Assembly: GCF_003334765.1 (NCBI RefSeq)
Contig: NZ_QOWT01000034.1
Direction: 5' to 3' (one strand)
Length of the DNA stretch: 41,409 nucleotides
From: Escherichia coli
GTDB taxonomy: Bacteria > Pseudomonadota > Gammaproteobacteria > Enterobacterales > Enterobacteriaceae
The position numbers and the translations under genes are program-made. The notes under the pieces are model-generated. The model saw nothing but the letters and a program-made list of their open reading frames with translations, did no database searches and was not told where the DNA came from. Every line of letters begins with the position of its first letter. Within the stretch, counting starts at the first letter, position 1. Below, in pieces: positions 144 to 959 of this stretch.

Positions 144-224
144 CCCTGAATTTCAGGATTTTTTTCTCTTCGTTGTTCCGACCATCCTGTGAAGTGTTTC
201 ACGTTGTCGTCTCAACGGAGGCGC

Positions 225-252
225 ATTATAGGGATCCCAATTTTTTGCACAA
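225..252 (-). promoter_or_regulatory. rRNA operon P1 promoter (rrnD-type) with upstream AT-rich UP element
   Basis: Minus strand reads TTGTGC (247-252), 16-bp spacer, TATAAT (225-230) followed by GCGCCTCC discriminator; A/T-rich tract 253-300 consistent with UP element and FIS sites. Confidence 0.65.
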
Positions 253-404
253 GTATTTTTTTGATCTTTTTTTCTGTTTGTTGTTTTTTCACCCTTTTTG
301 CTGCAATCGCACACAAAACGGTGCTTTTTTGCATACTAAAAGACTTGCACAAGGCCAATAATGCCCCCAAAGTCATTAGTAAATCATTTATTGCTGAGGT
401 AAGT

Positions 405-959
405 ATGTCTGATGTTTTACGCCCATACCGCGATCTTTTTCCACAAATCGGTCAGCGCGTAATGATCGACGATAGCAGTGTCGTGATTGGTGACGTTCGT
501 CTGGCTGATGATGTGGGGATCTGGCCGCTCGTTGTGATTCGTGGAGATGTACATTATGTACAGATCGGAGCACGCACCAATATCCAGGATGGCAGTATGT
601 TGCATGTCACTCATAAATCCTCGTACAACCCAGATGGCAACCCATTAACCATTGGCGAAGATGTCACTGTTGGTCACAAGGTGATGCTCCACGGCTGCAC
701 CATTGGCAATCGAGTTTTGGTTGGGATGGGCTCAATTTTACTTGATGGCGCAATAGTAGAAGATGATGTGATGATTGGTGCGGGTAGTCTGGTCCCACAA
801 AATAAACGGCTGGAGAGCGGATATCTGTATCTCGGTAGCCCCGTCAAACAGATCCGCCCGTTAAGTGATGAAGAGAAGGCTGGGTTACGCTATTCCGCGA
901 ATAATTACGTGAAATGGAAGGACGAATATCTGGATCAGGGTAACCAGACCCAGCCTTGA
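405..959 (+). CDS. yrdA: YrdA, gamma-carbonic-anhydrase-like hexapeptide-repeat protein (184 aa)
   Basis: ORF-track frame 189..959; protein from MSDVLRPYRDLF recognised as YrdA; internal ATG at 405 chosen because the upstream 72 codons overlap the rrn P1 promoter and are low-complexity. Confidence 0.8.
   Translation: MSDVLRPYRDLFPQIGQRVMIDDSSVVIGDVRLADDVGIWPLVVIRGDVHYVQIGARTNIQDGSMLHVTHKSSYNPDGNPLTIGEDVTVGHKVMLHGCTIGNRVLVGMGSILLDGAIVEDDVMIGAGSLVPQNKRLESGYLYLGSPVKQIRPLSDEEKAGLRYSANNYVKWKDEYLDQGNQTQP

Follow-up and report, generated by a model that had tools for sequence, protein, structure and literature searches.

The start codon of yrdA and the long reading frame that crosses the rrnD promoter region of Escherichia coli

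Results

The yrdA locus

The window (the whole stretch of E. coli DNA analysed here, 41,409 nucleotides in length) begins close to the rrnD operon, whose 16S rRNA gene is on the minus strand and ends some 70 bases before the first position of the window. Toward the right side come yrdA, yrdB, aroE, tsaC and later genes, in that order. The first 1200 bases cover rrnD–yrdA–yrdB and match E. coli K-12 MG1655 with 100% identity; the same 1200 bases were found in all 5426 complete E. coli genomes searched. The features of this region are collected in Table 1. It is worth adding that the 3′ ends of yrdA and yrdB overlap by 25 nt, at 935–959. Further along, the alpha-operon ribosome-binding-site leader (RF00140, 102.7 bits, 13608–13719, minus strand) is the only Rfam match in the whole window, and no other ribosomal-protein leader was found at the Rfam gathering score across the 41 kb.

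Table 1 Features at the rrnD–yrdA–yrdB locus, in window coordinates.
Feature	Position	Strand	Comment or evidence
rrnD P2	109..143	−	−35 TTGACT 143..138, −10 TAATAT 121..116, start ~109; alignment, consensus scan and Cappable-seq summary table
rrnD P1 transcription start G	~216	−	Cappable-seq summary table
rrnD P1 discriminator GCGCC	224..220	−	
rrnD P1 −10 TATAAT	230..225	−	Alignment of seven K-12 rrn upstream regions
rrnD P1 spacer	16 bp	−	
rrnD P1 −35 TTGTGC	252..247	−	Same seven-operon alignment
A/T-rich tract (19/23 A/T), at the UP element position	254–276	−	−40 to −60 of rrnD P1; read directly and aligned with the rrnB P1 UP region
72-codon N-terminal extension, almost certainly spurious	189..404	+	Non-coding intergenic: rrnD P1 and upstream region, presumed yrdA promoter region and 5′ leader
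Shine-Dalgarno core GAGG	396..399	+	5 nt before ATG 405
yrdA CDS, 184 aa, hexapeptide-repeat, gamma-carbonic-anhydrase family	405..959	+	TGA stop at 957–959
yrdB (DUF1488)	935..1192	−	Convergent with yrdA

A mechanical list of open reading frames gives yrdA as a plus-strand frame at 189..959, with a GTG start and 256 codons. The same frame contains an ATG at 405, followed by MSDVLRPY, and the two starts differ by (405−189)/3 = 72 codons. A sequence-only reading of this DNA had described just such a 256-codon frame with 72 codons upstream of the ATG, and both its coordinates and its codon count are exact. In the reference genome NC_000913.3, yrdA (b3279, NP_417738.4) occupies 3429236–3429790, which corresponds to window positions 405..959. 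The ATG is closely preceded by a Shine-Dalgarno core, while none of the upstream in-frame starts (GTG 189, TTG 204, TTG 261, GTG 321 and TTG 345) has an AGGA, GGAG, GAGG or AAGG core within 20 nt. The same mechanical list also lengthens two neighbouring genes, namely aroE (281 codons against 272 annotated, 1189–2034, minus strand) and tsaC (205 against 190, 2012–2629, minus strand), a smaller effect of taking the longest frame.

The YrdA protein

The protein read from ATG 405 is the same as E. coli K-12 YrdA (b3279; UniProt P0A9W9; PDB 3TIO/3TIS), which has 184 residues. The chain residues 1–183 of 3TIO/3TIS correspond to residues 74–256 of the long frame. Among solved structures it matches 3TIO_A (E = 1.4e-120), with 3R3R and 3R1W also matching strongly. 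All of the matches to solved structures start at residue 66 of the long frame or later, the closest ones (3TIO and the Salmonella protein 3R3R) at residues 72–74, with 3R3R covering 72–256. The crystal structures have His at residue 6 where the window and K-12 have Arg (SDVLHPY against SDVLRPY, window 420–422), which is a strain or cloning difference.

YrdA belongs to the hexapeptide-repeat (left-handed β-helix), gamma-carbonic-anhydrase-like family, and precomputed Pfam assignments for its homologues are PF00132 and PF14602. Its membership is at family level only, in agreement with the RefSeq name ‘gamma carbonic anhydrase family protein’: its NCBIfam scores lie below the equivalog cut-offs for CarbAnhydGPos, the gamma-carbonic anhydrase of Gram-positives (164.5 against 250), CaiE (89.8 against 305) and PaaY (85.7 against 319.6). 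The 184-residue form has histidines at H67, H70, H91 and H96, and three ligand histidines have been marked by Del Prete et al. (2020; PMC7470111). Within the coding sequence, codons 50–52 contain the CATAAT −10 hexamer (window 553–558, minus strand) of an antisense RNA promoter (Dornenburg et al., 2010; PMC2912661). In that work a CGTAGT mutation, synonymous in the yrdA frame (CAT-TAT to CAC-TAC), left the expression of yrdA::lacZ unchanged (PMC2912661).

The rrnD promoters

The DNA under the 72-codon extension is the promoter region of rrnD, read from the other strand. The promoters were mapped by aligning the minus strand of window positions 1–420 with the DNA that precedes each of the other six rrn operons of K-12. 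This alignment places rrnD P1 with the same −35 TTG, 16-bp spacer, block TCCCTATAATGCGCC and start position as rrnB P1 and the other rrn P1 promoters, these features being invariant across the seven operons. The differences are that rrnB P1 has TTGTCA at −35 and starts at A, whereas rrnD has TTGTGC and starts at G, and that the region upstream of rrnD has a different sequence. A sigma-70 consensus scan had a single match, at rrnD P2.

The transcription starts agree with this mapping. Genome coordinates were converted using an offset of 1978, which we take to represent the changes between U00096.2 and U00096.3, and this puts the P1 start at window 216 and the P2 start at 109, each to within ±1 nt. 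The coordinates converted in this way are 3427069 for rrnD P1 and 3426962 for P2 (U00096.2), as given in the rrn summary table of the Cappable-seq study (PMC4782308, supplementary file 4). Position 216 is a G, lies 9 nt past the −10 hexamer and aligns with the +1 A of rrnB. GTG 189 therefore falls within the leader transcribed from P1, at roughly +28, and the DNA read by codons 10 to 30 of the extension is, on the opposite strand, the P1 start site with its −10, −35 and A/T-rich tract. The placement of the extension over the P1 and UP region, as claimed in the sequence-only reading, is thus borne out both by the seven-operon alignment and by the Cappable-seq table, with an A/T-rich tract at the position of the UP element. 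By analogy with the established biology of rrn P1 promoters, this tract probably acts as an UP element.

The same reading had also placed FIS sites here. A scan of positions 230–404 with the FIS consensus (GNTYAAAWTTTRANC, at least 8/13 matches, with G1 and C15) gave zero matches, which, FIS sites being degenerate, speaks neither for nor against them. Gel shifts reported by Maeda et al. (2015; PMC4696680) support the binding of FIS to the rrnD promoter fragment, and FIS sites at rrnD are attributed to Hirvonen et al. (2001), as cited in PMC4696680. From this literature, FIS sites may be presumed at this promoter.

Just upstream of GTG 189, at 145–166 of the plus strand, there is a hairpin CCTGAATTTCAGG followed by ATTTTTTTCT, which scores like a terminator when read in the direction of yrdA. 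Read in the direction of rrn, these bases are an A-tract and hairpin just upstream of P2, an arrangement common to rrnH and rrnE. The promoter of yrdA itself presumably lies within 189–404. Strict and relaxed sigma-70 scans gave no plus-strand site for it, and the supplements of Kim et al. (2012) have no entry for a yrdA transcription start.

The position of P1 also bears on a different proposal, that a small protein distinct from YrdA is encoded here on the minus strand, either the 54-residue ORF at 212..376 (WP_000172051.1) or a 78-residue variant (WP_136511987.1). PGAP does call a ‘hypothetical protein’ here in a minority of genomes (at 441–677 in the coordinates of locus L092 and 513–677 in those of locus L093). 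However, this ORF lies mostly upstream of the P1 start at 216, over the −10, −35 and UP tract, and therefore cannot be read from the P1 transcript. Few genomes have the call, and a homopolymer indel determines how long the ORF is. A real protein here is extremely unlikely, and the ‘hypothetical protein’ probably represents one more false call, made in the same DNA with its scarcity of stops.

Composition and codon usage of the extension

The extension is T-rich (37.5% T, compared with 25% in the window). Its 72 residues include 10 Phe, 10 Ile, 7 Ser, 6 Leu, 6 Lys, 6 Ala and 5 Cys, and Phe, Leu, Cys and Ile together make up 43% of the extension but 17% of the core protein. The sequence-only reading had called these codons Phe/Leu/Cys-rich; this holds for Phe, and Leu and Cys are present, but the extension is better described as Phe/Ile-rich.

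An open run of 72 codons is not more than expected by chance in DNA of this kind. The frame is free of stops in about 5.3% of dinucleotide-preserving shuffles of 189–404, and in 6.3% of shuffled random 216-mers drawn from the window. The region is also largely open in two other frames, with ORFs of 53–94 codons: one on the plus strand at 77..361 (94 aa), and on the minus strand those at 212..376 and 153..314.

Codon usage was scored by log-odds, trained on 36 long ORFs from the window itself. The extension scores −0.14, which is below every in-frame 72-codon window of the training ORFs (mean 0.30, sd 0.15), although the score is an intermediate one in that it exceeds 98% of out-of-frame gene windows. 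A search of NCBIfam with the 72-residue extension gave zero family matches.

The extension contains a hydrophobic run resembling a transmembrane helix (Kyte-Doolittle 2.68 over 19 residues), and the segment IFLIFFSVCCFFTLFAAIA is hydrophobic. This gives some support to the idea of a genuine long isoform specific to Escherichia, of 256 residues in K-12 and longer elsewhere, which would start at GTG 189 on a transcript running antisense through rrnD P1 and would have a membrane-anchoring N-terminus. Against this, T-rich DNA by itself gives a hydrophobic product, since codons with U in second place specify hydrophobic residues, and the codon usage is below that of all the comparison genes.

Orthologues outside Escherichia

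Loci were taken from one genome per species, giving 62 loci outside Escherichia, from 62 genera. The codon aligned with position 405 is ATG in 62/62 of these, and in 57 of the 62 a Shine-Dalgarno core (GAGG or AGGA) is found within 20 nt of it. No locus among the 62 has 72 or more open codons upstream of the ATG (maximum 69, median 15). Orthologue clusters with a source name, among them those of Citrobacter, Salmonella, Cronobacter and Kosakonia, have 184–185 residues and cover the last 71–72% of the long ORF, and the only full-length matches to the long query are the 256-residue entries of E. coli and Shigella. The sole similarity to the extension at the peptide level is in one locus (L024, 42/72 residues), where it is limited to the stretch overlying the rrn P1 core and is interrupted by a stop. 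An alignment of orthologues had been put forward as a check on the upstream 72 residues, and it finds them not to be conserved.

The comparison extends to shorter in-frame extensions, starting at GTG 321 (28 extra codons) or TTG 345 (20 extra codons). Both codons are present in all sampled Escherichia. They lack a Shine-Dalgarno core, however, and the other genera have in-frame stops in this range, as the median of 15 open codons indicates; furthermore, no N-terminal peptide or initiation row for b3279 corresponds to either in Table S1 of the TRAINSPOTTER study (PMC13245402). It would be most surprising if either were a real start.

The rrn P1 −10 block (GCATTATAGGG on the yrdA strand) lies 151–274 nt upstream of the ATG in 58/62 loci. 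The distance from block to ATG, taken modulo 3, is 0, 1 and 2 in 24, 20 and 14 loci respectively; all three phases occur, and therefore the spacer changes in length without regard to triplets. We note that the divergent arrangement of rrn and yrdA is kept across Enterobacterales, Vibrionaceae and Aeromonas (loci L004–L072), that the −10 block is usually 160–195 nt from the yrdA ATG, and that draft contigs mostly break off within the rrn leader. Such tight spacing of rrn P1 and yrdA suggests a shared upstream region, and the regulation of yrdA and of rrn P1 is possibly coupled.

Variation within Escherichia

The frame over 189–404 is open in E. coli, in E. albertii and in a more distant Escherichia lineage. 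Indeed it is open in all sampled Escherichia except one locus (L092), where it is broken by an insertion, and this would favour a genuine long isoform; a second sequence (H102) also has an insertion. The pattern of substitution does not favour it. Between the window and the Escherichia locus L083, substitutions at codon positions 1, 2 and 3 number 7, 11 and 6 in the extension, but 15, 5 and 56 in the core. The corresponding ratio of synonymous to non-synonymous codon changes is 4:16 in the extension and 54:13 in the core (Fisher p = 1.3e-6). The changes in the extension are thus mostly non-synonymous, and there is neither a synonymous excess nor a third-position bias, and so no signature of purifying selection at the codon level.

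The openness of the frame within Escherichia was considered as evidence for coding, and was rejected. Being the P1 core and UP region, the first half of the extension hardly varies, and the approximately 24 substitutions in the remainder would often miss creating a stop by chance.

Length differences of 1–2 nt were likewise considered as possible frame-breakers and rejected, since they fall at 160–166, in a run of T that lies upstream of 189, and change only how far the frame reaches. The length of this run, which separates rrnD P1 from P2, differs by 1–2 nt from one E. coli lineage to another, as in O157:H7 and an O25:H1 strain. The indel shifts the upstream frame and gives a longer open frame in many strains, where candidate starts precede the ATG by 98 or 109 codons. 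The differences in T-run length account for database entries of 273–295 residues, and the resulting shifts in the length of the extension from strain to strain argue further against a genuine isoform. The insertion in L092 is an extra T at about 268, in a T homopolymer, and breaks the long frame while leaving yrdA unchanged. In H102 the match is 1 nt longer, the extra base being within the extension. Both insertions may be homopolymer assembly errors.

Experimental start-site evidence

Direct evidence on the start of YrdA is given by the TRAINSPOTTER study (NAR 2026, PMC13245402). Its Table S1 (rows 774–775) lists for b3279 the N-terminal peptides MSDVLRPYR and SDVLRPYR. These are not tryptic products of the long form, because the residues preceding them would be Ser and Met. 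The listed initiation site, NC_000913:3429236–3429238, corresponds to window 405–407; it belongs to the database start class and has both Ribo-RET and INRI-seq support (PMC13245402). Table S1, in which the b3279 rows are intact and adjacent, has no row for an extended proteoform or an alternative initiation site of this gene. Start-site data had been named in the sequence-only reading as a way to decide between the two starts, and in this table N-terminomics, Ribo-RET and INRI-seq list ATG 405 only, and not 189.

For the long isoform these listings are an objection, to be added to the lack of a Shine-Dalgarno core before 189. In addition, its mRNA would need to begin in the interval from P1 to P2 and then pass, head-on, one of the cell's strongest promoters. 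In its favour there remains the activity of a recombinant 256-residue protein (PMC7470111), discussed below. Taken with the substitution pattern and the codon usage, the objections make a genuine long isoform very unlikely. It is similarly improbable, to a high degree, that a long YrdA of low abundance has recently been gained by chance in Escherichia, made from rare antisense transcripts through rrnD P1 and tethered to the membrane by its hydrophobic, promoter-derived N-terminus. If true, it would represent an early stage in the origin of a coding sequence, de novo, out of promoter DNA.

Discussion

The clear conclusion is that yrdA is, with near certainty, translated from ATG 405 to give the 184-residue YrdA, that positions 189–404 are non-coding, and that the long ORF is an artefact of choosing the longest frame. 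The earlier proposal that the protein begins at MSDVL is supported by the reference annotation, the structure 3TIO, the GAGG core, the N-terminal peptides and the Ribo-RET and INRI-seq signals at ATG 405. This start is already known, being carried by the curated references (NC_000913.3 and RefSeq).

The presence of an open frame in Escherichia can be explained in simple terms. The yrdA strand is T-rich here, being the complement of the A-rich UP region, and with 180 nt from the P1 −10 to the ATG the complement of the hexamer is read as CGC-ATT-ATA-GGG, so that the block gives R-I-I-G. Shifted to another phase it would contain GCA-TTA-TAG and give G-G-A-L-stop, the −10 hexamer itself supplying the TAG. 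In Escherichia the frame thus has no in-frame stop because of the T-rich strand together with the 180-nt phase of the −10 block, and from such a frame the longest-ORF rule produces the 256-codon artefact. The locus is a useful teaching case, in which an A/T-rich promoter on one strand gives an open and hydrophobic-looking frame on the other.

The case is ordinary as biology, and its practical value is as a caution about the 256-residue form, which is in circulation. The gene is given as 184 residues in NC_000913.3 and in 9/9 of the RefSeq records fetched, and in none of 60 spread-sampled genomes is yrdA annotated over 189–330. However, the 256-residue sequence is present in NCBI and in UniRef (for example as J7R9P7_ECOLX), and is found on at least 1000 contigs. 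In describing the long ORF as an annotation artefact, the sequence-only reading was therefore correct.

The long form has also entered enzymology. Del Prete et al. (2020; PMC7470111) expressed a synthetic 256-residue gene with an N-terminal His tag and reported its kinetics and inhibition as those of the E. coli gamma-carbonic anhydrase, ‘EcoCAγ’ (WP_009008373.1). The authors themselves point out the 72 extra N-terminal residues relative to P0A9W9 (PMC7470111). EcoCAγ is encoded by the same 771-nt, 256-codon ORF as window 189..959, and the tagged protein was reported to be soluble and active (PMC7470111). The gene being synthetic and tagged, its expression does not address native initiation, and it therefore shows no more than tolerance of the extension. 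The constants published for EcoCAγ, for kinetics as well as inhibition, consequently describe a protein in which 72 residues are translated rrnD promoter.

Over-extension by the longest-ORF rule is familiar from early annotations. As in those cases, a far GTG that lacks a ribosome-binding site was preferred for yrdA over an ATG preceded by a Shine-Dalgarno sequence, the frame between them being open. The yrdA case differs from the usual one in that the extension, at 72 codons, is unusually long, lies over a well characterised promoter, and has spread into experimental work.
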